Shown: positions 11,006-59,760, counted from the stretch's first letter. The stretch: 64,000 nucleotides of DNA from Octopus vulgaris (GCA_951406725.2 OX597816.1:70742001-70806000); one strand, 5' to 3'. Program-made: numbers and translations. Notes: generated by a model not told the origin, from the letters alone.

Positions 11006-12259
11006 ATTATAATTTATATATATATATATATGTATATATAGGCGCAGGAGTGGCTGTGTGGTAAGTAGCTTGCTTACCAACCACATGGTTCCGGGTTCAT
11101 TCCCATTGCATGGCACCTTGGGCAAGTGTCTTCTACTATAGCCTCGGGCCGACCAAAGCCTTGTGAGTGGATTTGGTAGATGGAAACTGAAAGGAGCCCG
11201 TCGCATGTATGTATATATATATATATAAAACTTTTTCAATTTTTTAATTCTTAGGCCTATTAATTATTAATTGGTGCACATTCTATATGAATGTTTCTTT
11301 CCTTGTTATAAATATGGAATGTGAAACCTCTTTGGTGAAGATAAATTTTATTCCTGATGAAGAGGCCATTGTCAGTTTGGTGTTTTAATGTGTTAATGGA
11401 TTGTGGCAATGGCTCCTGAAACAGCTGTGCAACTTGAATTCCTTCATGCACTTTATGAGGGATATTATTCTGGATTCCTCTTACCTTTAGTAGTTTAACT
11501 ATCTTACACTTTTTTAATTTTTAGTCACCTTGCTATATGTATACTTTCACATTTTCTTCATGTGCTTCCATAAGCATTGTTCTTTATAGGTTTTTCACAT
11601 GTTTTTACATGTGTATATGTGTATATTCTTATACCTTTGGCTTTTATGTGCTGAACGCCCTCGTATTTTAACATGTACCTATGTTCAACGGTGTGAATAT
11701 ATGGGGGTGATATAAAGTTGTTTGCCCAAATCTGATGTTTATTTTTTAACCACTGAGTTTCATCATCATCGTTCAACGTCCACTTTCCTATGCTGGCATG
11801 GGTTAGACAGTTTGACTGAGGGCTGGCAAGCCAGAAGGCTGTACCAGGATCCAATCTGATCTGGCAAGGTTTCTACAGCTTGATGCCCTTTGTAATGCCA
11901 ACCACTCCATGAGTGTAGTGGGTGCTTTTTACGTGCCACCCGCATGAAGGCCACACAGGTGGTACTGGCAACAACCACGCCTGAATGGTGCTTTTTATGT
12001 GTTCCTTTCTGTGGAAGAGCGACGGCTCGAAATGTTAAAGACTTTTTCAATTCCCGAGCATTATACTAACACATCTGTTTGTTGTCTACACCACCTGTCT
12101 TCGTCTTTGGTTTTTTCCGTGAATTCTCCCTATAAGCCTCATTAAAGGATAATAATATCCAATGAATTTACTGGTTTATTACCTATATATTTTGAATATT
12201 AATTTTAATACTCAAAAATAGGTAATTAAATAAACCGAGGTTCATATTTATTTAAGAAA

Positions 12260-12530
12260 GATAAGAAAATCAAGATAAATCAATTGACAATTATCTTTAT
12301 AATTACAAAAATAGACATAATCCCTGACAGCTGTTTCGATTCAGACTTTAAAGATTTTAATTAAAATAATTAAATCATTATCAAACAGAATCTTGTCGGA
12401 GGTAGAAAAAAAGATATACCATTACATTTTTATGTTTTTAAGTATATGGAACATTTCAGCTGCCAGGGATTATGTCTATTTTTGTAATTAATAAATATAA
12501 TTATTAATTGATTTATCTCTATTTTCTTAT
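12260..12530. repeat. Inverted repeat (~72 bp arms) with a degenerate hammerhead on the - strand
   Basis: 12260-12333 vs 12457-12530; minus strand 12402-12323 reads CCT-CCGACAA-GATTC...GAATC-GAAAC-AGCT-GTC-AGG. Confidence 0.65.
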
Positions 12531-13285
12531 ATATGTATATATATATATATTTAAAAATGCATTTTACCCTATCTTCAGTATTTGAGTACTTTTTTTCCCA
12601 CCTTGTTTTGTCTTTATGTGCTTACTCCTGTATGTATGTGTGTGCATGTATATATAATAATAATAATAATAGGGAATATAATTCCAAACTTACAGGGAAA
12701 AATTCAATTTAGCAATTCTAAGGTTTTTATTGTATATTTATTTTTTCTATATGGTGTGAATAACGTCTTTAACTATTGAATTGCTTAATATAGGTTTTTC
12801 TCTCAATTATATATATATATATATATATGTGAAAAGGATTTGCACAGTTTCTCTCTCAAGGTGTGTGTCCAGCAATACTTGGTCAGCTTCAAGCTATAGC
12901 AGACAGTTGCGGCAAGATGTCTTGTAGCTGCAAAGCGACCCCAAACCATCAGATTGCAGACTGGACTTCTTAACCATGCAGCCATGCCAATGCCTGACAT
13001 AGGGATAAGAATGTAGCATGCTTGATTTCCAAATATGAATTTATTGAAATAAGGTTAATTGCTTTGAAAATTATAATCTTATTTACTGCAGCTCATCTCA
13101 TACACTTAAACACTTAATAACATTTAATTATAAGTAACGAGGCATTTTACTGAAGATCCAGCAGAGCATGCTGTGGTTACTCTTTAATTTCATTATATGA
13201 GTTTCGCTGACGAGTGCATAGAATGAAGTAAATGATATACACACAAACACTCACACTTTCTCTCTCTCTCTCTCTCTCACACACA

Positions 13286-13319
<34 letters not shown>

Positions 13320-13833
13320 AATATATTGTTGTTTGCCTGTCCATTTAATGTTGGCTTTGAAAAATGAACATTAAAACACCAATGAGGAAGAGGAGGAGGA
13401 GGTCGACAATGATGCCATCGATGTCATCAATGGTGGTAGTGTTGGTGGTGGGGGTGATGACAGGTAGAGTGCAGAATTCATAATTGTTGCTGCAGGAATA
13501 TTTGTTGTTCAATTGGATTTCTGCTTAGGAAAGCATTCGTGTGCTTTTAACCTGTGACTTAAATGCATATGATATTATTATAACATATGCAACAAATTTC
13601 AAATAAATCTGTCTAGTGAAGGAGTCTTTATGCAGTTGTTCAGCCTGCTAGAAATTACAGCCAAATCTCCCTCAAATCACAGTCTTCTGTCTTAAAAAAA
13701 AAAAAACCGGATGGTTACATTGAGAGTAATCTCTCTCTTTTTTAAGAAAATGCAGTGGGCAGGACTAAAACAGTAGGTACAGGTGTGCCCAATTACAGGT
13801 TATTGGTGGGGTTAAAAAACCAGCAACAGTAGT

Positions 13834-14213
13834 GGAGGCGCAATGGCCCAGTGGTTAGGGCAGCAGACTCGCGGTCGGAGGATCGCGGTTTTGATTCCCA
13901 GACCGGGCGTTGTGTGTATTTATTGAGCGAAAACACCTAAAGCTCCACGAGGTTCCGGCAGGGGGTGGTGGCGACCCCTGTTGTACTCTTTCGCTCCAAC
14001 TTTCTCTCACTCTTTCTTCCTGTTTCTTGTCCCCGACTTCCTACGCAACCGCTGAGCCTGGATGCGCATTCATCCATCCGTCGATGCTGTCGGTGTCGGG
14101 GGTTGACCTGCTTTCTCTTCTGCGGGTCTTACAAATAGCAAAGGATCACGTTTCAGACTTCTCCCATCTTGCAAGCTCTGGGACGAAGACCGTTCGCTCA
14201 ACAGCAACAGTAA
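13834..14213 (+). mobile_element. tRNA-derived SINE family C
   Basis: TGGCCCAGTGGTTAGG A box, GGTTYGATTC B box, CAA/CAG tail, flanked by CAGCAACAGTA; close inverted copy at 44202-44526. Confidence 0.85.
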
Positions 14214-16386: not shown

Positions 16387-16498
16387 ACTCACTGTTGGTA
16401 TAGAATATGAAACCAGTCCTGATTCATCAGCCTTGTTTTGGTTATCACCACTTCAAACTGCTGGAAAGCAGCATCCATATTTATACAGCCAATGTGAG
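16387..16498 (+). CDS. LTA4H: LTA4H-like M1 aminopeptidase, first exon visible in window (LTVGIEYETSPDSSALFWLSPLQTAGKQHPYLYSQCE)
   Basis: tttcag acceptor, gtaatt donor; peptide resembles the LTA4H segment [30 protein letters not shown]. Confidence 0.93.
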
Positions 16499-16512
16499 GT
16501 AATTTCACTTAA

Positions 16513-17021
16513 CCCTTTTGTTACCATATTTCTGCTGAAATACATTGCTTTTCGTTTTTGGATTTAGTTTGCAAGATTCTTTATATGAGTTCGTGTGTTG
16601 AAGCATATTCTTTTGTGTCTGGGAAGAGTCATTTTCTTTCTGTGCCTTATTATTTAACACACTCACCGGTAAAGTTTCCACTTATTTATTATTTTTATTT
16701 TCCTAAAATTTTCATTGCATCTTGCAACCTTTACATGCAAGACGCAACGAAAATTTTAGGAAAATAAAAATAATAAATAAGTGGAAACTTTACCGGTGAG
16801 TGTGTTAAATAATAAGGCACAGAAAGAAAATGACTCTTCCCAGACACAACAGCACATTGCCTTTGTTATTTAGGAAACTAACTTTAATCATAATTGAGCT
16901 GGTGTTTAGAGCATAAATTAACATGACATTTTGATGGGAAGTTTTAGTTTATATGACTTTAAAGCAAGAGGTTTAGATCATAGAACAAGGGCTGGCTTCG
17001 AGTGGGTTGGTATCAAAAGGG
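16513..17021. mobile_element. TTAA-flanked piggyBac-like MITE (hosts the 16553 palindrome)
   Basis: TTAA-CCCTTTTGTTACC ... GGTATCAAAAGGG-TTAA. Confidence 0.7.
16553..16853. mobile_element. Palindromic short element (~60 bp tail plus ~115 bp inverted arms); second copy at 50879-51138
   Basis: Arms ~16613-16726 and ~16736-16849 are nearly perfect inverted repeats; flanks ACATTGC(T/C)TTT at 16542 and 16854. Confidence 0.8.
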
Positions 17022-17372
17022 TTAATGTATTCATGCAGTTTTTTGTCCTTATTTTTCACAGATTTATGTAAATAAAATTACTTTTCCCTCCTCTCTGTTA
17101 GGAGGCACAAGAACTTACACTCACATGGTACACACATGACGAATACTTTCGCTTAACAAATTCAATCACAATGCTTTGATCAGCCCGAGGCTATAGCAGA
17201 AGGTGCCATGCAGTGGGACTGAACTCAAAACCACGTGACTGGGAAGCAAGCTTCCTAACTACACAGCCTTGCCTGTACCTACAAAAAGGAATATTAATAG
17301 ATAGTGGTAGCAAGTACTGTAGACTAGAATGTACATTTCTATAAGTACATCATCATCATCATTTTCCTTTAA

Positions 17373-17593
17373 CCCTTTCATTACCAACCCGGCTGAAACC
17401 AGCTCTGGCTCTGAGTACAAATGTCTTGTTTTCATAAGTTTTGAATTAAAATCTTCCATCAAACCTTTGTCACAATTTCTGTTCCTAACACTAGCTTAAT
17501 GATAACTAAGTTATTTTTTCTAAATTCTTTGTTATATTTAAAATAATTGAAAGAAACGCAGAGCATCTCAAAATAAATACAGTAACGAAAGGG
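17373..17593. mobile_element. TTAA-flanked piggyBac-like MITE, related family, opposite orientation
   Basis: TTAA-CCCTTTCATTAC ... GTAACGAAAGGG-TTAA. Confidence 0.75.
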
Positions 17594-18680
17594 TTAATGT
17601 TTGTTTTCCATACTGGCATGAACTGGACAGTTTGACAAGAGGTGAGAAGCTGCACCAGGTCCCATTCTGATTTCACTTGGTTTCTACAGCTGGATGCCTT
17701 TCCTAACGCCAACCACTTTACATTGTGCGCTTGGTGCTTTTAAAATGTCATGGGCATGAGCACTTCTGTGTGGTACTGGCACAAGTGCTCATTACATGGC
17801 ACTGACATGGGACTCTTGCAGGCCAAACCTCTTCACCAGGGGATGCAGCGTTGGCAGTAAGATCTCTACACGTTGTGTTATGTTGAAGGGATTTATCATA
17901 ATCTAGACATAAAGTATGGATGTACGGTTAAGAAGTACACTCGGCAACCATATGCTTCAAGATTTGGTCCCTCAGCACTATACCTTGGGCAATTCCCTTC
18001 TAATAAATACAGGTAGATAAATACCTATTTCTTTACTACCCACAAGGGGCTAAACACAGAGAGGACAGACAAATGGATTAAGTCGATTATATCGACCCCA
18101 GTGAGTAACTGGTACTTATGTAATCGACCCCGTAAGGATGAAACTCAAAGTCGACCTCGACAGAAATTGAACTCAGAACGTAGTGGCAGACGAAATACTG
18201 CTAAGCATTTCGCCTGGCGTGCTAACGTTTCTGCCAGCTCGCCGCCTTAACAGGTAGATAAATACCTTGTTAGTGGAATTTGGCAGACATATTTTGTAGA
18301 AGCCCATTGAGTGAGACAGACTCTGACACCAGATTATCTAAGGAAGAAATAGATGGAAAATGAAAGCTCTCTCAGCCAAACATAGGTTCAAAGAAGTTGT
18401 GAATGATGTGAATCACATAAAGAAGGAAGAATTAAAGACTTTCGGAGATTCTGTTATATAATTTTCTGTCAGCTGCAGACCAGATTTGTGGATTACTCTG
18501 GGACATAGTAGTGGAATGGTATGGTAGCTAGTCTTAAAAGTTAAAAGTCATGCCTGGAAAAAATTGAGAGCAAGAAACGATATCAGGTAACTAGAAGAGT
18601 AGCTAGGTGTCTAGCCAGAGTGGCTACAGTAAATAATTATCCAACTCATAACTGTTTCCTTTGATATCTTTACCATTTAG

Positions 18681-18749
18681 CCAATTCATGCCCGGAGTTT
18701 TGTACCCTGTCAGGATTCACCTGGAGTTAAGTTTCCTTACACAGCAAAG
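18681..18749 (+). CDS. LTA4H: LTA4H exon (PIHARSFVPCQDSPGVKFPYTAK)
   Basis: tttag/gtaagt, 69 bp, phase 0-0; PCQD-P motif of M1 peptidases. Confidence 0.95.
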
Positions 18750-20185
18750 GTAAGTAGCAATTAATTTTTCTCATCATCATCATCATCATCATCATCATCT
18801 AACATCAGCTTTCCATGCTGGCATGGGTTGGACAGTTTGACATGGAGCTGGCTAGCAGGGAGGTGCCCAGAGGCATGGTTTCTATGGCTGGATGCCCTTC
18901 CTAATGCCAACCACTTAACAGTGTGCTAGATGCTTTTTACATGCAACCAGCATGGGTGCATTTGCACAGCCCTGGCATGGGTACATTAATGCAGCACTGG
19001 CACAGGTGCTTTTAAAGCAGCATTGGCACCTGAAAAGACAAACCTGTATGTGTGGAAGACAGTGGTTTTACTTAGCTTGATGTGTCTTATCAAGTAGAAA
19101 GCCTAAGAGCATGGAGCTTACAGTTGTTTCTGTGCAGGACAAAACGTTTAGCATTTCTTCTGGCTTTACATTCTGAGTTCAAATGTCATTGAAATTGATT
19201 TTGTCTTTTTTTCTTTTGCGGGGTCATTGAAACAGGTACCAGTTAAGTACTGGTGTCAATGTAGTCAACTAGCTACCCCCAAACCAACCCAACCCAAAAG
19301 AAAAATGTCAGGCCTTGTGCCTACAGTAGAGCAATAAAAGAATTATATCCTGCAATGAAGACACATTTGTCCATTCCCAGGCAAAATCAAACTCATCATT
19401 GTCCCCACTGTGATATCTCAGCAAAATCCACACCTGGACTCAAATTACATTCATTCATCCATCCATTGCAAATAGATGCAGGATCTTTTATTTTTAATTC
19501 CCCTTTAATCCTTCATTCAAACACGTGTCGAAATCAACAGCAGTGACCATCATTATACCATTACTATTATCTGGTTGAAGGAAACTGAAAGAAGACTGGT
19601 GTGGGTGTGTGTGGGGTTTTGTTTTGTGTATCCCTGACTTGACAGTGCATGATAGTTGTAAATAGGTACCACCATCATACAAACATTGTCTTGTTTCCAA
19701 TCTTCCATGAAAACATGTCCAGTCATTGAGAAATATTAGCGTGTTTTGACACAGGTGAGGGCTGATGAGAAGAAGGGCATCCAGCTGCAGAAAATCTGTC
19801 TCAACTGATTTTGTCTTAACCCATGCAAACAGGGAACAGTGGTGGTGGTGGTGGTTGTTGTTGTTAAGGACTTTGGATTAATAGAATTGTTAGCGCATTG
19901 GACTAAATGTCTCGGGTGACTAGAGAAAGTAGAACAAGTGTGTCAGGCAGAGGTGGTATGAAACCAACAAGTTCTGAGAAGCAGAGGCCATTTTGGTAGT
20001 TGTGGTGGTGGCGGTGGAAAAAGCAAACTGAAGAGGCAGCATGTTTGTAGATCAGAAGAGAAGGACTGAATTGTTGTTGTCTCATTGCTTTTGTTATTTT
20101 GATTGTGATTTAGGATATTTGACACATGACTGAGAAAAGCTTAAATGCCATTCCAATATTTTGTTTGATGTTTTCTTCTCTGTAG

Positions 20186-20343
20186 GTGACAGTCTTAAAG
20201 GAATTTGTGGTCTTGATGAGTGCACTTCAACAGAGTTCCAATGTATGTCGATCAAATTCTTCAAAAATGGAATTCTTCTTCAAACAGCCAGTGCCAATAC
20301 CAAGTTATTTGATCGCTATTGTTGTTGGAGACTTGGCCAGTCG
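20186..20343 (+). CDS. LTA4H: LTA4H exon (VTVLKEFVVLMSA...FKQPVPIPSYLIAIVVGDLASR)
   Basis: tgtag/gtaagt, 158 bp; PIPSYLIA motif. Confidence 0.95.
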
Positions 20344-20810
20344 GTAAGTAATTTTCTTTTGGGTGTGGCTACGTGGTAAGAAGTTTGCTTCACAACCACA
20401 TAGTTCTGGGTCAAGTCCCACAATGTGACACCTTGGACAAGTGTCTTCTATTATAGCCTCAGGCTGACCAAAGCCTTGTGAGTGGATTTGGTAGACAGAA
20501 ACTGAAAGAGGCCCGTCGTATATATGTATATATCTATGTATGTGTGTGTATATGCTTGTGTGTCTGTGTTTGTCCCCCCAAACAGTAGAAGACACTTGCC
20601 CAAGGTGCCACACATCTTAAAATTTGACTGCAGCCATGCTGGAGCACTGCCTTTAGTTGAGCAAATCGACCCCAGGACTTATTCTTTGGAAGCCTAGTAC
20701 TTGTTCTATCGGTTACCTTTTGCTGAAGCGCTAAGTTACAGGGACGTAAACACACAACCATTGGTTGTCAAGCGATGTTAGTGGGGACAAACACAAACGC
20801 ACAAACATAT

Positions 20811-20854
<44 letters not shown>

Positions 20855-22453
20855 ATGATACGATGGGCTTATTTCAGTTTCTGTCTACCAAATCCACTCA
20901 CAAGGCTTTGGGTGGCCTGAGGTTATAGTAGAAGACACTTGCCCAAAGTACCACGCAGTGGGAATGAACCCGGAACCATGTGGTTGGTAAGCAAGCTACT
21001 TACCACACAGCCACTCCTGATTAATTTTTCTGCCAATGCATGCTTATTTTTAGTTATCTTTGTTATGATCTATCTGGGAAATATGTTATTAATATGTATC
21101 TGATTGCCTGTCATCATCATCATCATCATCATTTAGCTTCTGTATTCCATGTTGGCCTGGGTAGGATGGCTTAATAGGATCCGACAGGTCAAAGGACTAT
21201 GTTTAGCTCCAGTGTCTGTTCTAGAATGGTTTTTGTGACTGGATTCTCTTCCTAAAACCAACCATTGTACAGAGTCACTGGCACTAGTGAGATCACAAAG
21301 TAGCTCCCAAGACAATACCCTTTAACTGAGGTGCAGAGTAATGTTGAGAGGCCACAGATTATGATAGAGGGATAGGAATAAGTGACATGGTGTATAATTA
21401 CATAATCATTTCTAGTTATGCTCCATGTATTAAATAGTAACTATATGTAGAGCTGCTCTATGTATCTGTCTACTATTTCAGCTTAGCTTTTTAATGTTCT
21501 GTTTTTTTTTTTAAATATGCTAATAACTAACGATTAACGTATCATATGATGGGTAGTGTTGGAATGAATGTTTTACCATTGTGGGTAATATTATGTAATG
21601 TTAGTTTATATGGGTACAATGATTATAATTTTATTTTTCAAATTTCATAGTCCTTATACAAAATGAATACTAGTTTTAAAAAGATGAATATGTATTAAAT
21701 TAATTTTGAATTAAAACATCTTCCTGTTATGCGTTTGCAATAAATATATTATCAGTAAGAATAATACTGTTTAACTATGAATGACAGATGTAACATTATT
21801 TGTTTATTGTCAATGGTGGCAAAAACGTTCTCAACATTACTTGTCATATGACAGGCAATACGAGTATAAAGTAACCAAAGGAGACAAATATAATAAGGTC
21901 AGTTTTCTCCCTTAGAGGAATGGACAAACAGAGAGATGGATACCGACTGCCAGTTATATGAATAGATAACATATGTTCCTTCAATTTATGTTCATTTTCT
22001 CATGCTAGTGTAGGTTAGACAAATACATACATAGACTTCGTTTTTCATCCAAATGCTATTGTGGTTACTAACTCTTATCTGTTTTTCAAGCAATGAACCT
22101 GTTTTATCCCACTCATCTTTGAAAGTGCAGAGCTAGGGGATAATTTATTGATGAGTGATGTGAAAGTAATGTCTCCAGTGCTGAAGTTGAACCTCCTCCT
22201 TCCCCTCCCTTCTCCCACTAAGAAACCAGCTGTTCAGACCTGGAAAGGGATGGCTTTATTGGGATATGAAAAAAACCTAGGACAAGTCAAAGTTTACATC
22301 ATGTGGGTGGCTTTCAATTTCTGCAAAACTTGAGGGGGCCAATGAATAAATGTAATACATCATTTAGTGTGTTCAATCTTATTAGATTGTAGCAAATTTT
22401 GTGTTTATATATAATTCCATACTTTTTTTTTTTTCATATTTCTTTTTAACCAG

Positions 22454-22526
22454 TAACATTGGACCCCGTAGCAAAGTATGGTCAGAGACGGAATTTCTTG
22501 ACAAAGCAGCTTTTGAGTTCTCTGAG
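22454..22526 (+). CDS. LTA4H: LTA4H exon (NIGPRSKVWSETEFLDKAAFEFSE)
   Basis: accag/gtgatg, 73 bp, phase compatible with both neighbours. Confidence 0.95.
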
Positions 22527-22903
22527 GTGATGTATATATTTATATATAATATCGAGAATTATTGTCTTGCATTTTGTTCATTTTCTGTTGCTGTTGTTTA
22601 AACCCAGGCAAGCCCAGATTGAACAGACTTGTTAGGACCAAAGGCATTCCAGGCATGATCCAAGTGTTTATTTTTTTAGGGGTCTCTTATACTACATTAT
22701 AGAATCTGTGCTTCCTATTTTTTTTTGTCGGTTGTGAACTGGCCGATATTTTTAGTAGATTGCATGACTACACAGAGGCTCCTTTGTGAACTTGATTCAT
22801 TTTTATGTGTATGCAGGATGGGAAATAATAGTTAGTTTCACTGGTGGAAACCCAGTGCAGATATTAACTAATACGCAGCTAATTTTCGTGTGTGTGTGTG
22901 TGT

Positions 22904-23037
22904 AAAATTAAGATTGGCTGAGCTTTTACTCTTTTGTTTGACATGTAGTTTACGTCCCTGTTGAGCTCACCTTGCGACATCAGCATTACTGTTTGATAAA
23001 TGTACCACCCCAGCCAAACTCCTCAACTGACACTGTT
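22904..23037 (-). pseudogene. Decayed 28S (LSU) rRNA fragment
   Basis: Minus strand GGAGTTTGGCTGGGGTGGTACATTTATCAAACAGTAATGCTGATGTCGCAAGGTGAGCTC...GAGTAAAAGCTC...TCTTAATTTT is colinear with the conserved LSU segment GGAGTTTGACTGGGGCGGTACA...GGCGAGCTC...GGGCAAAAGCTC...TCTTGATTTT. Confidence 0.8.
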
Positions 23038-23083
23038 CTTGATTAAAGGTCGAGCATTGACATCTGTTAAGGTACTCAACATT

Positions 23084-23140
<57 letters not shown>

Positions 23141-23142
<2 letters not shown>

Positions 23143-23330
23143 TCGCCATGATAGATCGTTAGCCACTACACACGTTCTTTTCTCTCCTTGTTTCTTCTGT
23201 GTCCCTTTCTGTAGAAGAGCGTAGGCTCGAAACGTAAAAGACTTTTTCTATTCCTGAGCGTTATACTAATACATCTGTTTGTTTTGTACACCACCTGTCT
23301 TCGTCTTTTGTTTTTTTTGTAAACTCTCCC
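23141..23330 (+). mobile_element. Short hammerhead-like element embedded in (TA)n; copies at ~11998-12130 and ~35249-35430
   Basis: Three ~130-190 bp copies all ending CTCCC-TATA; internal CTTT-CTGTRGA-A-GAGC-N4-GCTC-GAAA-CG-TH-AAAG. Confidence 0.7.
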
Positions 23331-23363
<33 letters not shown>

Positions 23364-23604
23364 CAGGGTTTGATGAGTAAATTCTCGCCATTATATATTT
23401 TTAATTTCACACTTGCATGTTGTTTGTTTTTAATTTTGTTGAGTACACAGTACAGTAGGGTCAGTTGGGCACCATCTGTGAAAAAAACAGTGCCATGATG
23501 CAATTCACTGTCAGAAATTTTGAAACGGCATGCTATATTGTTTGGTATTTGTGCTGGAAGCTCCAATATAAACGTTTCAAAGTGTTTGGGTGTCAATCTG
23601 AGGA

Positions 23605-23701
23605 TATGTATCGAGAGTGATAAAAATCAAACATCCAGTCAACATCATGGTGTTTGGAGTGATCACTAGTGATGGCAATGTTATGCCTCCATTCATCTTC
23701 C
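23605..23701 (+). pseudogene. Tc1/mariner (maT/DD37D-like) transposase fragment
   Basis: KIKHPVNIMVFGVITSDGNVMPPFIF. Confidence 0.6.
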
Positions 23702-24216: not shown

Positions 24217-24248
<32 letters not shown>

Positions 24249-24309
24249 TAAGTATGATGCCAAATTTTATTTAATTTTCTTTTTTTTTTTTTCTGTCTTC
24301 CCCCATTAG

Positions 24310-26338: not shown

Positions 26339-26366
26339 GTAAGTTGATGAGTGTTGCTTTTCTGTT

Positions 26367-27336: not shown

Positions 27337-27380
<44 letters not shown>

Positions 27381-48900: not shown

Positions 48901-50651
48901 AATAAAACAATAGTTAATTGTTGCTTTTATCTTCCTCATTACCAACGTCATATCAGGGGTTTTTTACCATATGTCACACATCTTATCGAGATATATGTAT
49001 TATTTTAATAAGTCTGACAAGAATATGTTATCAATAAATTCATGTCTGAAACTGAAAATTAAAAGGCATAATTTTGATATCAACATTTTTTTAAAAAAAG
49101 TATAAATTCTAAGCCCCAATTTCTAATTAATCTTGTTTGTGTATTTAATTAAAATAAGAGTTCAAAGATTTAAAACTGAAAATTTAATGCTGGTCTAGAA
49201 TCTTTTTTAAAATAATATCAGAATATCCCTAAAGGTGGTGCTCCAGCATGGCCGCAGTCAAATGACTGAAACAAGTAAAAGAGAATGTAAGTTGAAAAAA
49301 AAAAAAATTCTTATCAAAAATATTCTTAGCATGTCTTTTTAATGGTTGAACGATTTCCTTCAAATCTTGATTTGTTTTTCTTATTTCCTGTTTAATTCCA
49401 AACTTTGCAGATTTCCAAATTTTGGTTATTGTAGTTAATGTTATGAGAAATAAATTTGTTTTGCTTGTTATTTTATAGACATTTTTATTTATTCATTTCT
49501 TTTCTTAATTTTTTTTTTTTTTTATTTTACTAAGTTTCGGTTTTATATCATTTGGCCTAATGTGTTTGTATAGCTATGCGGTTAAGAAGTTTGCTCCCTA
49601 ACCACATGGTTTCAGGTTCAGTCCCACTGTATGACACCTTGGGCAAGTTTAGTCTACTGTAGCCATGGGCCAACTGAAGGCTTTGTGAGTGGATTTGTTT
49701 GTTATCATCATTGTTGTTTAACATTCGCTTTCCATGCTGGCATGGATTGGACAGTTTGACTGAGGATTGGCAAGCCAGGCTCCAATCTGATTTGACAGAG
49801 TTTCTACAGCTGGATGCCCTTCCTAATGCCAGCCACTCTGAGAATGTAGTGGGTGCTCATTATGTGGCACAAGAGACAGTCAGGTGGCACTGGCATCGAC
49901 CACGCTTGAATGGTGCTTTTTACATGCCACTGGCACAGTTGGTTACTGGGGTTGATGAAATCAACTTCCTCCCTCCACCAAATTTGCTGGCCTTGTGCCA
50001 AAATTTGAAATCAATATTTGTGTCGCGATACCTTTGTTTTTTCAATTACTTTTGAAAATAATGGCTGTGTGGTAAGTAGCTTGCTTACCAACCACATGGT
50101 TCTGGGTTCATTCCCACTGCATGGCACCTTTAGCAAATGTCTTCTACTACAGCCTCGGGCTGACCAAAGCCTTGTGAGTGGATTTAGTAGATGGAAACTA
50201 AAAGAAGCCCGTCGTATATTTATATATGTTTGTGTGTCTGTATATGTCCCCCACCAACATAGCTTGACAACCGATGGCGGTGTGTTTACATCCCCGTAAC
50301 TTAGCGGTTCGGCAAAAGAGACCGATAGAATAAGTACTAGGCTTCCAAAGAATAAGTCCTGAGGTTGATTTGCTCGACTAAAGGCAGTGCTCCAGCATGG
50401 CCGCAGTCAAATGACTGAAACAAGTAAAAGAGTAAAAAAAGTAGAGTAAGAATATTTAGCCATATGATTTGCACATTATTAATCTTTTCAATACCAACCT
50501 GCCTGAGATCAGCCCTGGTTCTAGGATACAAACTTTCTGTTTTGAAGTGATCTAAATTAAAAAAATTTCATCCAAATTTCTTCTTAATTAATGTTTGAAG
50601 CACCCGCTTCATAAATTCTTTGTTATTTTCAAAAATAATTGAAACTAAGAC

Positions 50652-50878
50652 ACATGGCGTAGTGGTTAAGAGCATGGGCTACTAACCTTAAGATTCCAAT
50701 CCCAGGTTATGACCTCAACGACGATGACAATGATGATGTTGATGCCGCCGATACCTCAGAAATGTAAACCCAGGTTCAAAATTCCCCCAGGGCACCTGAT
50801 GAAGGCTGGAGAGTACATCAGCCAAAACGTGTTAACAAACAAGATGAGGCCAAATATCCGTCAAATGCAAATAATGTA
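50652..50878 (+). mobile_element. Single copy of the tRNA-head/hammerhead-tail element
   Basis: ATGGCGTAGTGGTTAAGAGC head, anticodon-like arm, CTGATGAAGGCTG...CAGCC, same 3' region as 56700-56805. Confidence 0.7.
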
Positions 50879-51138
50879 TTTTGTTTTGGGATTTGGTTTG
50901 CAAAATTCTTTATATGAGTTCGTGTGTTGAAGCATATTCTGTTGTGTCTGGGGAGAGTCATTCTCTTTTTGTGCCTTATAATTTAACAGACTCACCGGTA
51001 AAATTTTGAGAGCCAAGACTATTGAAAAGGTTGCAAGACGTAATGAAAATTTTAGGAAAATAAAAATAAGTGGAAATTTTATCGGTGACTTAAATTATAA
51101 GGCACAAAAAGAAAATGACTCTCCCCAGACACAACAGC
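50879..51138. mobile_element. Second copy of the 16553-family palindromic element
   Basis: Same outer ends as 16553-16853 but a different inversion point; flanks AAATAA(T/A)GTA at 50869 and 51139. Confidence 0.75.
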
Positions 51139-51957
51139 AAATAAAGTAAATCATCATCATCATCGTTTAGCATCCGCTTTCCATGCTAGCATGGGTTGGA
51201 CAGTTCAACTGGGGTCTGGGAAGCCAGAAGGTTGCACCAGGCCCAGTCTGATCTGGCAATGTTTCTATGGCTGGATGCCGTAGAAACATTGCCAGATTTA
51301 CCATCCGAGCATGATCGTTGCCAGAGCGGCTAACTAGCTTCCATGCAGGTGGCATGTAGGAGGCACCATTCGAGTGGGATCATTACCAGCATTGCCTTAC
51401 TGGCACCTGTGCCGTTGGCATGTGTAAAAAGATTTGAGCAAGGTCGTTGCCAGTACCGCCTGACTGGCCCTCGTGCCGATGGCACGTAAAAGCACCCACT
51501 GCACACTCGGAGTGGTTGGCGTTAGGAAGGGCATCCAGCCGTAGAAACTGCTAGATCAAGACTGGAGCATGGTGCAGCCATCTGGTTCGCCAGCCCTCAG
51601 TCGAACCATCAAACCCATGCTAGCATGGAAAACGACGATGATGATATTTGCATGTATGTTTCAAAATTGCACAAAAAAATAAAGACAGGTGAGGAAACGA
51701 CAATCAAGGTGTATTAGTTTTGATGCACACAAAAAATGGGTCTTTGATATTTCGATCCTTGTGTGTGTATATTTGCTCACCGCTGCCACCACCACTTGAC
51801 AACTGGTGTTAGTTTGTTTACCACCCCGTAACTTAGCAGTCTGGCAAAAGAATCAATGAAATAAGTACAGAGGTTGGTTGGTATGTTCAGTTAAAACCTG
51901 CATGTTCATATTTCAATGACTGAAGCAAAAGATAAAAGATATCAGACCCATTACATC

Positions 51958-51963
51958 TTTATT
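51958..51963 (-). promoter_or_regulatory. Candidate RFC4 polyadenylation signal AATAAA
   Basis: TTTATT on +, ~100 nt downstream of the RFC4 stop. Confidence 0.5.
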
Positions 51964-52063
51964 AAGGCAGTTCTCATTCTCTCTCTCTCGTGAAGTTAAA
52001 TGTATGAAAATATGTTTTTTTTTTCTTCTTTCTCTTTTTCATTTGCAAGAAGCAAAGAATGTC

Positions 52064-52162
52064 CTATTCCCTTTCATGGCATATTTGGTTCATAATAGCA
52101 TTCAGTAGATCCAGAAGTTGCAGGTACTCATCTGCTCCATCCATCATACACTTGTCCACAAC
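52064..52162 (-). CDS. RFC4: RFC4 terminal exon (VVDKCMMDGADEYLQLLDLLNAIMNQICHERE*)
   Basis: ttcag acceptor, TAG stop; DGADExLQL motif. Confidence 0.94.
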   Translation of the reverse strand, partial: VVDKCMMDGADEYLQLLDLLNAIMNQICHERE

Positions 52163-52204
52163 CTGAAATAAAAACGAAACAAATGAGCTAATAATAATAA
52201 TAAT

Positions 52205-52776
52205 AATCGTCGATGTCGTCGTTTAACATCCATTTCCCATGCTAGCATAGGTTGGAAGGTTCAACCGGGGTCTTGGAAGCCAGGAGGCTCCACCAGGCTC
52301 CAGTCTGATCTGGCAGTATTTCTACAGCTGGATGCCCTTCCTAATGCCAAACATTCTGTGAGTGTAGTGGGTGCCTTTTATGTGCCATCAGCACAGGTGC
52401 CAGAGGAGGCTGGCAACATCCACAATTGGTTGGTGCTCTTTACGTGCCACCAGCATGGATGCCAGTCAAGGCAGTGCTGGCATCGGTCACGTTCGGGTAG
52501 TGCTTTTTACATGCTACCGTCACGGGTATCACAACTACAATCTCCATTTGACTTCTATTTTGATGTTGATGTACTTGACTCAATAGGTCTCCTCAAGCAC
52601 TGCAGGTTACCCTACGATCCAAGGTAAGCACAGCAGGCCATCCTGCAAGCCATGAACTCACTTCATTTGTTAGGTCTTCGCAGTCACAGCATATCTCCAG
52701 AGGTCTTGGCCTTTCGTCATTGCATCTGTGAGGCCCAACGTTCGAAGGTCATGCTTGACCACCCCATCCCATGTCT
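52205..52776 (-). mobile_element. 5'-truncated RTE LINE: ORF2 end plus repeat-bearing 3' UTR
   Basis: TWDGVVKHDLRTLGLTDAMTKGQDLWRYAV followed by the abundant GGCACGTAAAAAGCACC...(ATG)n sequence. Further copies near 1341, 8205, 11760, 26970, 28255, 30100, 34270, 42095, 44730, 51150, 54230, 55325, 60912, 62545. Confidence 0.8.
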
Positions 52777-54989
52777 ATAAAATAGGAAAGGAGACAGACC
52801 TGGAAGAGGGAGTGTATGTCACTGACTTTGACAAATCTAACTGATTGATTGAGAGACCAAACAATTAATCAAACAATTGATTAATTAGTTGGTTGAATGT
52901 CTAACTAGTTGACGAATAACAATTCTTGCTAATTTTGGTGTGAGGCCAGTCATTTTAGAGGTAAGTGAAAATTGATTACACTAACCCCAATATGAGACTG
53001 GTACTTTATTTTATTGATCTCAAAGGGCTGAAATGCAAAGTTGACTTCAGTGGAATCTGAACTCAGAACGTAAAAAGCCAGAAGAAATGGCACCACACAT
53101 TTTGTCCAGCATGCTAACAATTCTGCCAACCTAATAATGATGATGATGATAATGAATCCTTCCAACTAAAGGCACAAGGCCTGAAATTTCAGGGGAGAGG
53201 ACTAGTCGATTACATTGACCCCAGTGTTTCACTGGTACTTATTTAATCAACTCCGAAAGGATGAAAGGCAAAGCCAACCTCGGCAGAATTTGCAATCAGA
53301 ACATTGCGACAGACGACATACTGCTAAGCATTTCGTCTGGTGTGCTAACAATTCTGCCAGCTTGCCACCTTAATATTAATAATAATAATCCTTTGTACTA
53401 TAGGCACAAGGCCTGAAATTTGGAGGAGGGGGATAATCGATTACATCAACCCCAGTGTTTTACTGGTACTTAATTTATCGACCACGTAAGGATGAAAGGC
53501 AAAGTCAAACTCGGCAGAATTTAAACTCACAATGTTGTGACAGGCGAAATACTGCTAAGCAGTTCTGGCAGCTTGCCACCCTAATAATAATAATAATAAT
53601 AATAATTATAATTACCATTTTAAATTTTTGCCACAAGGGCAACTTGGGGGAAGGTGGGGATGAGTCGACTACATCGACCCCAGTGCATAACTGGTACTTA
53701 TTCTATTGACCCTGAAAAGATGAACGGTAAAGTCGGCCTCGGCGGAATCTGAACTCAGAACATAGTGAATACCTATTTCTTTACTGCCCACAAGGAGCTA
53801 CACACAGAGGGGACAAACAAGGACAGACAAACGGATGAAGTCGATTATATCGACCCCTGTTCGTAGCTGGTATTTATTTAATCGACCCCAAAAGGGTGAA
53901 GGGCAAAGTCGACCTCGGTGGAATTTGAACACAGAATGTAGCGGCAGACGAAATACCGCTAAGCATTTTGCCCGGCATGCTAACAATTCTGCCAACTCGC
54001 CTTTGACATAAGGTATAACATGTACTTATTTGAATATTATAATTAGCAATATTTCAACAACATTTAAGGCAGTTTGCTGGCAGAATTGTTAGCACACTGG
54101 GCAAAATGCCTTAAGCATTTTGCTGTTGAGTTCAAGTTTTACGAAGGTTGACCTTTCATCCTTTTGGGTGTCAATATTAGCTTACATCCTCCCCCAAACT
54201 TGCTGGCCTTGAGCCAAAATTTGAAACAACGCCAACCACTCTGTGAGTGTAGTGGGTGCTTTTTATGTGCCACTGGCACAGGGGCCAGAGGAAGCTGGCA
54301 ACGGCCACTATCGGTTGGCATGTATAAAGCACCAACTGATCGTGGACGTTGCCAGCCTCCCCTGTGCCGGTGGTATGTAAAAAGCACCCACTACACTCAC
54401 GGAGTGGTTGGCATTAGGAAGGGCTTCCAGCTGTAGAAACATTGCCAGATCAGACTGGAGCCTGTTGTAGCCTTCTGGCTTCCCAGACCCCGGTCGAACC
54501 GTCCAACCCATGCTAGCATGGAAAATGAACATTAAACGATGATGATACTTGAACAACATTTATGGATGGGTTTCCCATAAGTTGTTGGTGCACATGAGAT
54601 GATGATGACGACGACGATGATATCAATGATGTTATTGTTGCTTTTAGCCCAAGGTGGCCTGATAGAGCAGGCTTCTGAACCAAAGCATTGCAACCACAAC
54701 CATCTTCTCATGGTTTTTCAGGCATAGTTTGCTCCTAACTCTATTATCTAATGTGTTCCTTAAGATGGTACAAGAGTGATTACAGAGTGAGATTTAACTG
54801 CTATTTCTAGCAGGCTGAACAACCCTGTAAAAGCTTCCGCATTGGATTAATCCATCTTTCATGCTAATTAACATTATACACCCAATTAGTCATGGCTGCA
54901 GTGAGATTCTGGCAGCTTGCCAGAGAACAAGGGCTTCAGGGTTAGGGTTAAACTTCAGATGCACAGAATGTAGGAGTAGCAAAAGAGGT

Positions 54990-55310
54990 AAGCAAGAACT
55001 GCACAGTTAGGGTGCTGCTACGTGTAATGGATAGCTTCTGTTACTTGAATGATCTAATTAGTGTCAGGAATAGTTCTGATGAAAATATAATAGCTAACAT
55101 AAATAAGGATGGAGAGGAGGAAGTTTAAGGATTTTCCCTTCTACTGTCAACGAATCTCTCTCTCTCATTCTTCCTCTCTGTAAAAAAGCAGATTATGTGA
55201 AACATAATGAAGCATATGTAAAAAAAGTGTGATGTTACACTGTACTAAAACATAGACACCAATATGCTAGAATGGGGAGAAATGCAATGAGTATGACTTA
55301 CAACATGCAT
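54990..55310 (+). pseudogene. Highly decayed RTE-type reverse transcriptase fragment
   Basis: VMDSFCYLNDLIS and later VKxVMLH remnants. Confidence 0.5.
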
Positions 55311-56334
55311 AGTGTTAACTAACAAGACAGACAAGAAAATCTAGACAGACTGGCTCCCGTGCCGGTGGCATGTAAAAAGCACTATCTGAACGTGATCGAT
55401 GCTAGGCCCACCTGACTGGCTCCTGTGTCGGTGGCACATAAAAAGCACCCAATACACTCTCGGTGTGGTTGATGTTAGGAAGGGCATCCAGCTGTAGAAA
55501 CATTGCCAGATCAGATTGGAGCCTGATGTAGCCACTGTCTTTCTAGACCTCGGTGAAACCGTCCAACCCATGCCAGCATGGAAAACGAACGTAAAACGAT
55601 GATGATGATGGCTTGTAAGAAATAGATAAACCTTCCTCAAATCACTTAAATGGGTGTCTGTATATATGTGCTGGTGACACATAAAATGCACCCAGCACAC
55701 TCTTAAGTGGTTGTCATTAGGAAGGGTATCTAGCCACAGAAACCATGCCATAACAGACAACTGAAATCTGGACAGCTCCATGGCAAACTGACCAACCCGT
55801 ATCAGCAAGGAAAACAGATGTTAAACGATGATGGTGATGATGTATATATGTGAACCTTGTGTAATAAAGTGCTTCGGTCAGCATTATAAATCCCAACATC
55901 TAGATTAGTGGTTCTCAACCATTATTTCGGTGCAGGCATGGATGTATGGCTAGGAAGATTGCTTTTCAACTATATGGTTCCGGGTTCAGTCCCACTGCAT
56001 GGCACCTTGGGCAAGTGTCTTCTACTATAGCCTCAGGCTATCCGAAGCCTTGTGATTGAATTTGGGAGGTGGGGGTTCCTGTCGTATGTGTACATGTATA
56101 TGAAAGTACGTGTACCTCCTAACAGATATGAGGGGCCCCTTTGTTTTCTCTTTTACTCAGTGAGGAGGGTTAGCGTTAGGGTCCGCATAGCCATTACATA
56201 TCTAAAAATTCCTCTCGTATTTTTGTGGTTAAATATTATTAGAAATTGTATAAAAAAGGTGTTTAAATATTTTGAGCACTGAAGAAATACAACCAGTTTA
56301 TTGCACATAAATTTTAACAACAAAATCTTATATG

Positions 56335-56837
56335 TACATTATTTACATTCAATGGATATTTGTCCTCATCTTTGTTGTTAACATTTCGGCTGATATACCC
56401 TCCAGCCTTCTTCAGGTGTCTTGGGGAAATTTCAAACCTGGGTTCTCGTTCCTAAGGTATTTTTCGATGTTATCATCATCATTATTATTATTATTATTGT
56501 TAGTATTCAGGTCCCTGCTTGGAATCAAACTCAGAATCTTGGGGTTAGTAGCCTGCACTCTTAACCACTATGCCATATGCCTGTGGGCATTTGGCATAGT
56601 GGTTCGATTCCAAGCAGTGACCTGAACACTAACAAAAATAATAATAATAATATTAATAATAACATCGAAAAGTATCTTAGGAATGAGAACCCAGGTTCGA
56701 AATTTCCCCAAGACACCTGAAGAAGGCTGGAGGGTATATCAACCGAAATGTTGTGTTAACAACAAACATGATGAGGACAAATATCTGTCAAATATAAATA
56801 ATGTAAATAATTTCTCATCTCTTAAATATAGAACTGT
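56335..56837. mobile_element. Palindromic head-to-head dimer of a tRNA-headed, hammerhead-containing short retroelement
   Basis: Arms 56335-~56580 (-) and ~56585-56805 (+) plus a ~30 bp tail; 13-bp direct repeat AAAATCTTATATG at 56322-56334 and 56838-56850. Confidence 0.8.
56712..56757 (+). ncRNA. Minimal type I hammerhead ribozyme motif
   Basis: GACAC-CTGAAGA-A-GGCTG(10 nt loop)CAACC-GAAA-TG-TT-GTGTT; stem II is perfect (GGCTG/CAGCC) in the sister copies at 56380-56420 (-) and 50791-50835. Confidence 0.7.
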
Positions 56838-57167
56838 AAAATCTTATATGGCCCAACAAGGGCCATGCGGACCTCAGTTGCGAACCACTGATCTAGATAG
56901 TCAGGCTGCTGCTGGAAAAATAACTTGTAATCAATGTGGTATGACTTGGAAATCCCTTGCAAGCTTTAAGAGCCAGATGAGACATCATGTGTGATAAGGA
57001 AACCAACAAAGAACAAAGCGTTTCTTAGAATGAATTGAGTTTAAGAGGTGGACTTATTTGGTCACAAGTTGACCTCCACCGCATGTGTGTGTGTGTGTGT
57101 GTATTTGGGTATTTCTATCTACTTACAAATGAAACAAACAAGATACTAATAAATAATGCACACTTAC

Positions 57168-57284
57168 CGCCATCTTTTCTCCAATGACACATTTCTGCTT
57201 GTCGCCGAGTTCTTCAGAAAACATGATGAGGTCATGCAGCTGGCAGACAATTTGCAAACCGGAATGGCCATTACAGATAATCTC
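57168..57284 (-). CDS. RFC4: RFC4 exon (EIICNGHSGLQIVCQLHDLIMFSEELGDKQKCVIGEKMA)
   Basis: cgcag/gtaagt, 117 bp; QLHD and DKQK motifs. Confidence 0.93.
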
Positions 57285-57612
57285 CTGCGTAAATTAACAG
57301 TGAGTATTATATTGCTTACTTGGTTCATGATGAAGGTGGTGGTGGTGATGATGGTGATGATGATGAGGTTGCATGTAGATGAGGATAAACTTAAATTTGA
57401 GAAGCAACAAAATGAACAATTGGTAGCATAAAAGAAGATGAGAATTATTTCTAATTTAGGCACAAGACTAGCAATTTTGAGGAGAGGGACCAAGTGGATT
57501 ACACTGACTTAAGTACTTGACTAGTACTTTATTTTATTGACCATGAAAGGATAAAAGTCAAAGTTGATCGTGGCAATATTTGAACACAGAATGTAAAGAA
57601 CCAGAAGAATTA

Positions 57613-58268
57613 CAGGTTGTCATTGACTTATGACCAATTGACTTTATGACAATTGGTGCGCCAGCAATACTAAACACTCCAGTTGAAATCTAATGGGTTT
57701 AATTTCTTAGAAATCAATCTGTCTACGGATGATGTCAGCTAACAAACGCTTCTCCTAGGTTTAGTTATCAATCACCACTGTGCTTATTCCGAGTGCTGGA
57801 TGAATATCCTGTTGGGAGACATTGAGGCAGCCTCATATTTGTTAATAAGATGACTGTTTGAGACTCCGACATTTTTTGACTAATGCCAGTATAATAGTAT
57901 TGGGTCGTCCAGAAAGTTCGTGCCGATTTTTAAAGGAAAGAAAAAGGTCAATAAATACTTACCATTACATTTTTAATCAACCAAATATGAACCATTTTGA
58001 AGCACAATGCGTCTCCATCTTTCCTTTAACTTGAAAATACCTTCTTCCCAGAATTAAGGTGCCTGGGATGGTAAGTCGAAAGGTAAGTTACTATAAATTG
58101 GCACGAACTTTCCGGACAACCCAATATAATACAGAATGCTGTGAGTAACTTTTACCTGAAAATGTACCTTAAGAATGTAAAAATATAGAACAAAGTCACG
58201 TAGGACTACAGGCCGACTTACGACCAGTCAGTCGGAACCAATTGTGGTCGTAAGTCAACGATGACCTG
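57613..58268. mobile_element. Tc1/pogo-type MITE hosting the mariner MITE
   Basis: TIRs CAGGTTGTCATTGACTTATGACC / GGTCGTAAGTCAACGATGACCTG, TA on both sides. Confidence 0.75.
57900..58124 (-). mobile_element. Mariner-derived MITE (shorter derivative of 61384-61944)
   Basis: Same TIRs, TA TSDs. Confidence 0.85.
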
Positions 58269-59125
58269 TACAGCTCAGTATTTTGTCTGAAATACTAATG
58301 ATTCTGTAAGCTCACCACCTTAATAATTCTTTCTACTGAAGACATAAAACCTGGAATCATTCATTATATCAGCCACTTTGCTCAACTAGTACCCATTTTA
58401 TTGATCCTAAAAGGATAAAAGACAAAGTTGACTTCAGCAGAAATTAAGAAATTCCGCAAAGCACTTCAATAATAATAACAATTCTTCCAAATTTTGGCAT
58501 AAGGCCAGCTAGTTTGAAGAGATGGACAAGTCAGTTACATCAACCCAGTACAGGACTGGTACTCATTATTTTATCAACCTCCAAAGGATGAAAGTCAAGG
58601 CTGACTTCAACAGAATTTGAAAACAGAACATTAAGAGCTGGAAGAAAAGCCGCACAACATTTTGTCCAGTATGTTAATGGATTCAACTAGCACACCTACT
58701 TAGTAATAATAATAACCCCTTTTCTACTAAAGACTTTAAGGCATGAAAATTTGGTAGTGGTGGCCAAGTCAGTTACATCACCCCCAGTACTTATCTGGTG
58801 CTTAATTTATCAACCTCAAAAGGATGAAAGGCAAAGTCAACCTCAGTGGATAGTCAATTACATTGACTCCAGCACATCTCTGGTACTTCATTTTACCAAC
58901 CTCAAATGAATGGAAAGCAAAGTTGTCTCAGCGGTACCTGAATGCAGAATGTAGGGTGTTGGAAGATAGAAGAATGCTGCTAAGCATTTTGTCCGACGCT
59001 CAAACAATTCTATTATGTGTTATTGGCAGTATGGCTTGCTCTGTTTATTAAAACACTGAATGGTCATTTAGTTAGCTGAATAATGAGTAGGAATACACAT
59101 TGTAAATTCAACTCTCAGTTTATAA

Positions 59126-59760
59126 AGTTGTCGGCTGTCAATCTACTCCTCATTTCAAGCATTGAATGACAATATAAGTCTTCAAAAAGACAGTTGCTCC
59201 CATAAATACCAAAATAAAATTTGGGATTTATGGAGGTTCAAAGTTGGGAACAAAAACAGGACAGTGGAGACATACAAGGAAACCAAATGAAAACAAACAT
59301 GGAGGGTTGTTAGACCAGAACGAGGGTAAAATAGCAAATGCTGGAGAAATATTTTCTTTGAAAAGAGAAAAGGCAGAAAAGAAGGACAAGGTGCATTTTA
59401 TCTCTCTTCTATCTTTTCTCTTTGCAAAGAAAATATTTTTCCAGCGTATGCTATTTTACCCTCATTCTGGTCTAACGACCTTCCATGTTTATTTCATTTG
59501 GTTTCCTTGTATGTCTCCACTGTCCTGTTTTTGTTCCCAACTTTGACCATCCATAAATCCAAAATTATATTTTGGTATTTATAGGAGCAACTGTCTTCGA
59601 AGACTCATATTGTCGCTCAGTGCTCAAAATGAGAAGTATTTAGACAGCTGACAACTGATGAAGGGTTATTCTTTGTATTACTTGTCCTATTTTCCATTTG
59701 TTTCTCTTGTTGTTTGCATATTTCATGCTGTTTACTGTTGGTGACATCCTGTACCCATAT
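59126..59760. repeat. Long inverted repeat (~245 bp arms, 40 bp spacer) with a one-sided tail
   Basis: 59126-59372 is the diverged reverse complement of 59413-59656; tail runs into TA-rich sequence. Confidence 0.85.

Follow-up and report, generated by a model that had tools for sequence, protein, structure and literature searches.

Head-to-head insertions of Penelope-like end repeats and a predicted strand-rewired hammerhead in an Octopus vulgaris locus

The region analyzed here (hereafter, the window) is a 64-kb stretch of the Octopus vulgaris genome (GCA_951406725.2, OX597816.1:70742001-70806000) that contains parts of two genes, an M1 aminopeptidase gene on the plus strand, which we take to be LTA4H-like, and a gene for a small subunit of replication factor C (RFC) on the minus strand, along with copies of six abundant families of short repeats, denoted A to F (Table 1). 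The elements at 16553, 23140, 33364, 35246, 56335 and 59126 are intronic, and the segment 50649-51137 sits between the ends of the two genes. Five of the insertions form hairpins. These are very probably 3' end repeats from several families of Penelope-like elements (PLEs), truncated on the 5' side and inserted head-to-head, likely through two-sided priming at a staggered cut and joining of the products. In addition, family E carries a motif that we predict to be a hammerhead ribozyme with rewired strands.

All five inverted structures listed in a preliminary description of the window are present, and their paired arms were located and matched; folding of two of the hairpins against shuffled sequences gave z = -34 and -12.6. 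The target-site duplications (TSDs) claimed for three hairpins were found as well, at 11, 11 and 13 nt. The sites were said to represent several unrelated short families, and in the window they do fall into six, but the five hairpins belong to only four because the elements at 16553 and 50879 are both of family A. The former lacks a hammerhead core because both of its arms end within the ribozyme. A unique tail on one arm, likewise claimed, is a family trait of A, B and D but not of E: the end of the short arm of the 59126 copy is matched by 0 of 29 other E copies picked with that short arm, and the 111-nt 'tail' of E was accordingly rejected as a family trait. Repeats also abut one another in the window. 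The family A pair 50879-51137 is a nested insertion that targeted the 3' end of the family B copy 50649-50878, and the 12134/12135 boundary likewise joins the 3' ends of families C and D.

Table 1. Genes, repeat insertions and hammerhead motifs of the window
Feature	Position	Strand	Details
Family C copy	11989..12134	+	Not inverted; minimal hammerhead, core 12009, U at position 6, otherwise intact
Family D head-to-head insertion	12135..12548	-	Minus-strand arm with tail 12135-12243; inverted short arm 12457-12548; arms 12244-12333/12457-12548, 79/90 matched; hammerhead ~12323-12402(-), C at position 4, long loop II, G8 to A at site 12399(-); no TSD found around the insertion
M1 aminopeptidase gene, part	16390..49258	+	PF01433, weak, E 0.002; exons near 16400, 18690, 20300, 24400, 26280, 35055, 36858 and from 45876 onward
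Family A head-to-head insertion 16553-16853	16542..16864 with TSD	-	Tail 16553-16609; arms 16610-16726/16736-16852, 114/117 matched; TSD 16542/16854, 11 nt, 1 mismatch; intron of plus-strand M1 aminopeptidase gene
Family C copy	23140..23334	+	Not inverted; core 23209, U6 variant, otherwise intact; sense to host intron
Family F copy	33364..33805	+	Retrozyme-like, direct partial tandems, never inverted; core 33372, G12 to A
Family C copy	35246..35425	+	Not inverted; core 35316, G12 to A
Family B single tailless copy	50649..50878	+	tRNA-like head, triplet tract; hammerhead core 50796, G12 to A
Family A head-to-head insertion 50879-51137	50868..51148 with TSD	-	Tail 50879-50934; arms 50935-51001/51079-51143, 61/63 matched; TSD 50868/51138, 11 nt, 1 mismatch; tailless arm with U3-A8 hammerhead at 51022(+), C11.1 to U
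RFC small-subunit gene, part	51576..62467	-	PF21960, E 7e-10; RNA-like contigs join exons 62145-62467 and 51576-52162
Family B head-to-head insertion 56335-56837	56322..56850 with TSD	+	Tail ~56810-56837; arms 56331-56530/56602-56809, 181/200 matched; TSD 56322/56838, 13 nt, exact; junction at quasi-palindrome before tRNA-like head (56573-56590); two lesioned hammerheads, 56415(-), lacking the 3' strand of helix I, and 56717(+), with a mismatch in helix II; intron of minus-strand RFC gene
Family E insertion	59126..59845	+	Arms 59126-59382/59403-59656, 226/254 matched; sense arm runs to (TA)n tract near 59767, then second-unit start 59799-59845 with splice-donor-like motif at 59831; no TSD found around the insertion
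Strand-rewired hammerhead (predicted)	59585..59661	+	II5' - X5' - III3'/UH/I3' - II3'/GAAA/III5' - X3' - I5'/CUGAUGA; G12 lesion; antisense to host intron

For each family, the architecture was examined in the best 30 matches of 40 scored candidates, sets that favor query-like copies. An upstream inverted arm was present at 20 of the 30 loci of A, 19 of B, 15 of D, 5 of E, 1 of C and none of F. Among the short inverted arms of A, 18 of 20 end 44-63 nt before the outer end (the query contained the tail), all 15 short arms of D end 130-152 nt short, and 16 of the 19 B pairs combine one tailed arm with one arm that is 24-42 nt short, on either side. Each of these families has two fixed arm ends, and therefore the tail is on one arm only. 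Six other inverted copies of E were seen, each with two full arms. Non-simple TSDs of at least 9 nt (9-15 nt) surround the pair at 11 of 20 loci in A, compared with 19 of 380 mismatched flank pairs, and at 11 of 19 loci in B, compared with 13 of 342. The arms are repeatedly joined at native quasi-palindromes that lie immediately 5' of the ribozyme in A and of a tRNA-like head in B; the exact junction motif was detected at 364 loci for B and 147 for A, with 0 for the control. Relative to the tailed arm, the junction center can come from either arm (4 and 2 cases in B), and many junctions contain gaps or filler. The proposal that integration itself creates the hairpin is thus supported by the fixed arm ends, the TSDs around the whole pair and the recurrent junctions. 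The possibility that the ribozyme cleavage site defines the 5' end of the elements was rejected because the junctions seen most often are located 5' of the core.

To obtain unbiased counts, 120 evenly spaced 10-kb stretches (1,199,700 bases) of the 2.8-Gb genome were sampled. Only 10 of the 57 family copies in this sample are head-to-head, all of them A (4/13) and B (6/9), with 0/26 in C, 0/3 in D and 0/6 in E; no copies of family F were found in the 1.2 Mb. The corresponding values for ordinary control repeats are 6/192 and 2/62. Overall, then, most copies are not inverted, an outcome that the preliminary description itself had named as counting against its proposal. Rough genomic copy numbers are 30,000 for A, 21,000 for B, 61,000 for C, 7,000 for D and 14,000 for E, and extrapolation from 10 per 1.2 Mb gives roughly 23,000 A and B hairpins genome-wide.

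The Penelope-type origin that had been suggested for the hairpin elements is upheld by the arm-arm-tail-TSD pattern, which is an already published PLE signature, and by long copies of A and B that encode a GIY-YIG endonuclease on the same strand. The latter finding speaks against the description of A and B as non-autonomous: these are truncated ends of coding PLEs and do not form a separate non-autonomous class. The identification of the GIY-YIG motif in the parents is based on the known features of PLE endonucleases. The coding parents of A are at loci L004, L026, L212 and L213. In two long A copies, a microsatellite-rich stretch is followed by a GIY-YIG-type frame on the same strand, and L212 displays the entire A pattern, its long arm being coding and its inverted arm 62 nt in length; in a blastp search, the A endonuclease fragment matched the GIY-YIG domain of a 781-aa PLE open reading frame (ORF; E 0.002). 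For B, the shared upstream sequence translates to a GIY-YIG domain at 4 of 10 examined loci (of the 11 pattern-search loci with native upstream bases) and at L156. The parents of both families are seen only as truncated C-terminal parts, with a weak reverse transcriptase (RT) match further upstream in L367.

The end repeat of B begins with a tRNA-like head; relaxed ARAGORN searches called it at 7 of 30 loci, with inconsistent anticodons. A tRNA-derived short interspersed element (SINE) would be expected to have such a head, with A and B boxes, and to lack a coding parent. Given that the B head lies within the end repeat of a coding element, B was rejected as a separate SINE. Literature searches that covered mostly non-subscription papers revealed no earlier description of a tRNA-like head in a PLE end repeat. 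With a tRNA-like promoter at this place, a coding PLE would be able to give off SINE-like RNAs. Non-coding head-to-tail tandems with a hammerhead in each unit, the hallmark of retrozymes, are not the organization of A and B, which have coding parents and inverted pairs, and the trait is partial in F (direct repeats at 4 of 30 loci) and E (a 766-nt direct unit in L149).

Other PLEs were detected among the examined loci. A young, unrelated element at L211:430-5672 has an intact 781-aa ORF with RT and GIY-YIG domains, preceded by a frame of 359 codons, as well as 456-nt direct repeats that are 99% identical, and many of the 150 scored GIY-YIG matches lie within 781-aa open frames. This 781-aa family was rejected as the parent of A to F, given that L211 contains no family match; RT matches near B copies (L041/L214 and L274) were likewise rejected as the B parent because they belong to other elements. 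At L274:5948-8893, the RT frame of a different PLE is interrupted by a family B head-to-head pair. In L213 (~3270-4590), an intronless 441-codon frame, by eye a WD40-like host gene, adjoins a family A copy.

Under the scenario that we favor, the RT/endonuclease would nick both target strands, about 12 nt apart. Synthesis would start at the outer initiation site from one 3'-OH and at the inner site from the second, with the gap between the two sites becoming the tail, after which the two antisense cDNAs would anneal at their 3' ends via a quasi-palindrome or microhomology and template each other. Inverted pseudo-long terminal repeats (pLTRs) with an optional 31-bp tail, a TSD of 8-10 bp and junction palindromes have been described (PMC3846280), with a scheme given also in PMC8557442. 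The PLE protein of the anole cuts and extends both strands and has two internal RT starts, the spacing of which corresponds to the tail, and the insertion is independent of ribozyme cleavage (PMC11167929). The natural octopus copies match these recent in vitro data and would provide a quantitative footprint of the poorly understood PLE integration, namely, two start sites, a stagger of about 12 nt and joining at quasi-palindromes.

Several observations weigh against this scenario or its extension to all families. There is no TSD excess in D (1/15 compared to 16/210 control pairs), because the D ends lie in (TA)n. The tail asymmetry is absent in E and C, both of which are rarely inverted. The A endonuclease fragment has no significant match in Pfam; the examined loci, to a distance of about 1.5 kb, revealed no coding parent for C, D, E or F; and the ORF upstream of C in L230 appears to be a separate element. 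Finally, rare variants are common to the two arms of one insertion about twice as often as to arms of different insertions, a pattern that fits a single template but also fits fold-back or later gene conversion.

Fold-back is the essence of self-priming, in which a single cDNA or antisense RNA folds back at a quasi-palindrome and is then copied, as modeled for rotifer PLEs (PMC3846280). The junction palindromes are compatible with this route, and so is the lower divergence between arms of the same insertion than between arms of different insertions (7.1 vs 8.5% in A, 8.2 vs 9.2% in B and 11.1 vs 13.3% in D), which however fits double priming too. We nevertheless consider self-priming unlikely. 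Single copies end not only at the outer site (4/11 in B) but also at the inner one (7/11 in B and, in the unbiased sample, 3/9 in A), and therefore the inner site is an independent start; the gaps or filler at many junctions and the extension of both strands by the anole enzyme (PMC11167929) also argue against fold-back. Chance pairing of independent insertions of abundant repeats, or an origin as DNA transposon-derived miniature inverted-repeat transposable elements with terminal inverted repeats, is highly improbable and largely refuted for A, B and D: abundant repeats do pair in inverted orientation by chance (6 head-to-head and 14 tail-to-tail of 192), but all 10 pairs of A and B are oriented head-to-head, with unequal ends and one common TSD of variable length (9-15 nt), and the arms of both families also occur singly and with retroelement ORFs. 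The single E pair at 59126, which has no TSD, may have such an origin.

The nine hammerhead-like sites that had been reported in the window are all homologues of family hammerheads, but only two, 12009 and 23209, both with U at core position 6, pass the descriptor of an intact motif (0 passes in 30 window shuffles), and the other seven carry lesions (Table 1). Rfam detected no hammerhead in the window at the gathering threshold and, below it, one weak Hammerhead_3 match (33349-33415, E 0.12). As to background, a minimal descriptor yielded 39 matches in 1.2 Mb and 0 in each of five shuffles, so that the motif is far more frequent than in shuffled sequence, as had been anticipated. A minimal type I hammerhead, consisting of the core, a helix II with G10.1-C11.1, GAAA, a palindromic helix III, UH and helix I, is a family-level feature in the C, D and F references, and its features are present also in A and B, as judged from sampled copies. 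The expected co-occurrence of hammerheads and inversion is found in some families but is not general. With a descriptor that tolerates one lesion, an inverted copy lies upstream of 9 of 47 matches (8 insertions) and downstream of 2, whereas for random positions the number is 10 of 443 in either direction; none of the 20 C-like matches has an upstream inverted copy, and 7 of the other 27 matches come from one tandem array. The hammerheads would be cargo of the end repeats, mostly decayed and likely silent in host pre-mRNA.

Two further hammerhead-bearing groups were noticed in the genome. A hairpin-forming family (L229:4760-5039, L237:1213-1509, L307:4062) has a minimal hammerhead with a G3-C8 core pair, and a retrozyme-like array at L220:1145-4360 (-) consists of seven units of about 536 nt, each with an intact type I hammerhead.

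In family E, the standard descriptor found nothing, but the conclusion that E lacks a hammerhead was rejected following searches in the S-G-C order (17 matches, compared to 1 in five shuffles) and with helix II left free. In the latter search, which returned 56 matches including some chance ones, the strand before GAAA pairs upstream (at least four Watson-Crick pairs) in 39 of the 56 and with the strand after A9 in none. A plain type SGC was rejected as well, the helix II partner being upstream rather than after A9. The complete rewired layout (Table 1), a motif missing from the preliminary list of sites, was matched 38 times in 10 clusters across all loci (23 matches in the E cluster, for which loci had been selected), 5 times in the random sample and 0 times in each of five shuffles. 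A fourth helix (X), which the search did not demand, has at least four pairs in 33 of the 38 matches. Helices I, II, III and X differ in sequence between clusters and yet stay paired through compensatory changes, and the core is retained in full. A 34-nt stretch from E has 202 exact occurrences in the genome. The wiring is predicted to be the S-G-C block order with the A9-G10.1 link opened, folding into a pseudoknot.

We consider it rather probable that E and at least nine related clusters carry an active hammerhead with a seventh wiring, beyond the six permutations in print, and that this would be the ribozyme thought to be missing from Naiad retrotransposons, present in on the order of 10,000 copies. 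No prior description of this wiring was found in a literature search that covered mostly non-subscription papers. Repeats in the window are nearly identical to published octopus Naiad ends, and in the supplement of PMC8557442, the records whose ends precede the Naiad_Ovul and Naiad_Omin headers match the rewired layout by eye; Naiad_Ovul is labeled HHR_half_core there. Naiad-like elements that target (TA)n would use the rewired hammerhead as their ribozyme. The loci examined revealed no ORF linked to E and hence no N-terminal GIY-YIG, CxC linker and C-terminal RT as in Naiads; what E shares with Naiads is the RNA layout and the (TA)n target. The E units are about 770 nt long and have a splice-donor-like motif at the start and, about 215 nt later, a polypyrimidine tract ending in CAG, similar to the pLTR intron of PLEs.

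It is doubtful that the E motif is instead a fold conserved for a non-catalytic role, such as protein binding, or that it is an ordinary type-SGC hammerhead with the strand after A9 as helix II. The activity of E is a prediction from sequence, the downstream strand can be drawn in a weak, G-U-rich helix II for E and two relatives, and the published view is that block C is uninterruptible (PMC10085705), all of which speaks for such an alternative. However, the upstream position of the helix II partner (39/56 as opposed to 0/56) and the retention of the full core while all helices change favor the rewired hammerhead. Should the latter cleave, it would break an assumed rule of hammerhead topology, explain why standard searches miss Naiad ribozymes and offer a new cis-cleaving scaffold.

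The preliminary description viewed the insertions as a non-autonomous, retrozyme-like community that could systematically provide pre-mRNA with ADAR substrates and sites of cryptic cleavage. In its favor, tight, stable hairpins lie in introns of two genes that are covered by RNA-like contigs, the A and B hairpins number roughly 23,000 by the above extrapolation, F and the L220 array are retrozyme-like, and B may also be transcribed on its own from its tRNA-like head; furthermore, a lizard Penelope element is heavily hyper-edited, a palindromic frog repeat is heavily edited, and octopus is rich in predicted double-stranded RNA (PMC5625713). Against it stand the coding parents of A and B and the 47 of 57 sampled copies that are not head-to-head. 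In a census of inverted repeats in the sample (a minimum of 45 matched bases and 80% identity, with a loop of no more than 1 kb), 13 of 117 are of the PLE type, with outward 3' ends, compared to 41 formed by ordinary abundant repeats, 3 that point inward and 60 unclassified; among the 70 with loops up to 250 nt, the respective numbers are 9, 13, 2 and 46. Some of the unclassified repeats may be further PLE families. The longest inverted pairs of the window (20362-21017 and 29185-30546) are formed by the most abundant short repeat and not by PLEs.

Cryptic self-cleavage in pre-mRNA is unlikely: seven of the nine sites are damaged, the cores present in the window hairpins are mostly paired within the duplex in minimum-energy folds, and a single minimal PLE hammerhead motif did not cleave in vitro (PMC4209133). 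Of the sites in the sense orientation of the host, only 23209, with U at position 6, is otherwise intact. Editing of PLE hairpins by ADAR is plausible by analogy. Squid editing targets repeats (PMC9068888), and the accessible portions of PMC5625713 and PMC9068888 mention no tie between cephalopod editing and PLE hairpins. In RNA-like contigs covering 45000-64000, the X1 changes are A>G 57, T>C 48, C>T 47 and G>A 45, and those of the large run X18 are, in the same order, 56, 50, 47 and 48; these counts are uninformative on editing because they are balanced and dominated by paralogous copies. If edited, the A and B hairpins would contribute about 20,000 self-contained ADAR targets, albeit a minority of the inverted repeats of the genome. 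PLE-type hairpins are probably a minor source of ADAR substrates, and the proposal as a whole appears improbable to us.

With regard to the genes of the window, the segments 45876-49258 (+) and 51576-52162 (-) are the convergent ends of the aminopeptidase and RFC genes. The RNA-like contigs extend about 3.4 kb past the start of the last plus-strand aminopeptidase exon, including repeat copies. Arrays of a 66-67-nt unit are present at 62550-63280 (11 copies, just upstream of an RFC exon) and 8214-8438 (3.4 copies).

Compared with known systems, the locus displays mostly a known PLE footprint, to which the idea of editing is added, and the unusual features are the rewired hammerhead of E and the tRNA-like head of B. 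Published insertions of endonuclease-containing (EN+) PLEs, such as Pen2a_Av (PMC3846280), Poseidon_Ac (PMC11167929) and those in Fig. 2 of PMC8557442, share with the octopus hairpins the head-to-head, 5'-truncated copy with a tail on one arm, a TSD of about 10 bp, the junction palindrome, AT-rich or (TA)n targets, a hammerhead in the end repeat and, for A and B, a GIY-YIG parent. The tails are longer here, about 55 nt in A and 130-140 nt in D compared to 30-40 nt in print, whereas B fits at about 30 nt; unlike the published insertions, the B end repeat starts with a tRNA-like head. The minimal PLE hammerheads of PMC4209133, which include U3-A8 cores and opposite-strand pairs 100-700 bp apart, resemble those described here in the short helix I, the extra base between 9 and 10.1, the palindromic helix III, the U3-A8 variant (family A) and the paired arrangement at the same spacing; the U at position 6 of family C, the C at position 4 of family D and the G3-C8 core (L229, L237) are not mentioned in the accessible part of that paper. 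Metazoan non-LTR retrozymes (PMC7229834; bioRxiv 10.64898/2026.07.22.740005) resemble F and the L220 array in forming direct tandems with type I hammerheads, and the SINE-like hammerhead elements of schistosomes (reviewed in PMC6765202) resemble B in combining a Pol III-like head with a hammerhead, but the five hairpins here are inverted pairs rather than tandems, and B has a coding parent. Naiad PLEs (PMC8557442) share the (TA)n targeting with family E, and two octopus Naiad 3' ends have the same rewired layout, but Naiads were reported to lack canonical hammerheads and the E sequence differs from the octopus Naiad ends. The type-SGC hammerhead HRIMA-1 (PMC10085705) resembles the E motif in the S-G-C order, the full core with helices I and III and an extra helix tying I and II; in E, however, the 5' strand of helix II is at the 5' start, and A9 and G10.1 are unlinked. 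HRIMA-1 comes from metatranscriptomes rather than animal genomes and its cleavage has been shown, whereas the E hammerhead is predicted from an animal genome sequence.

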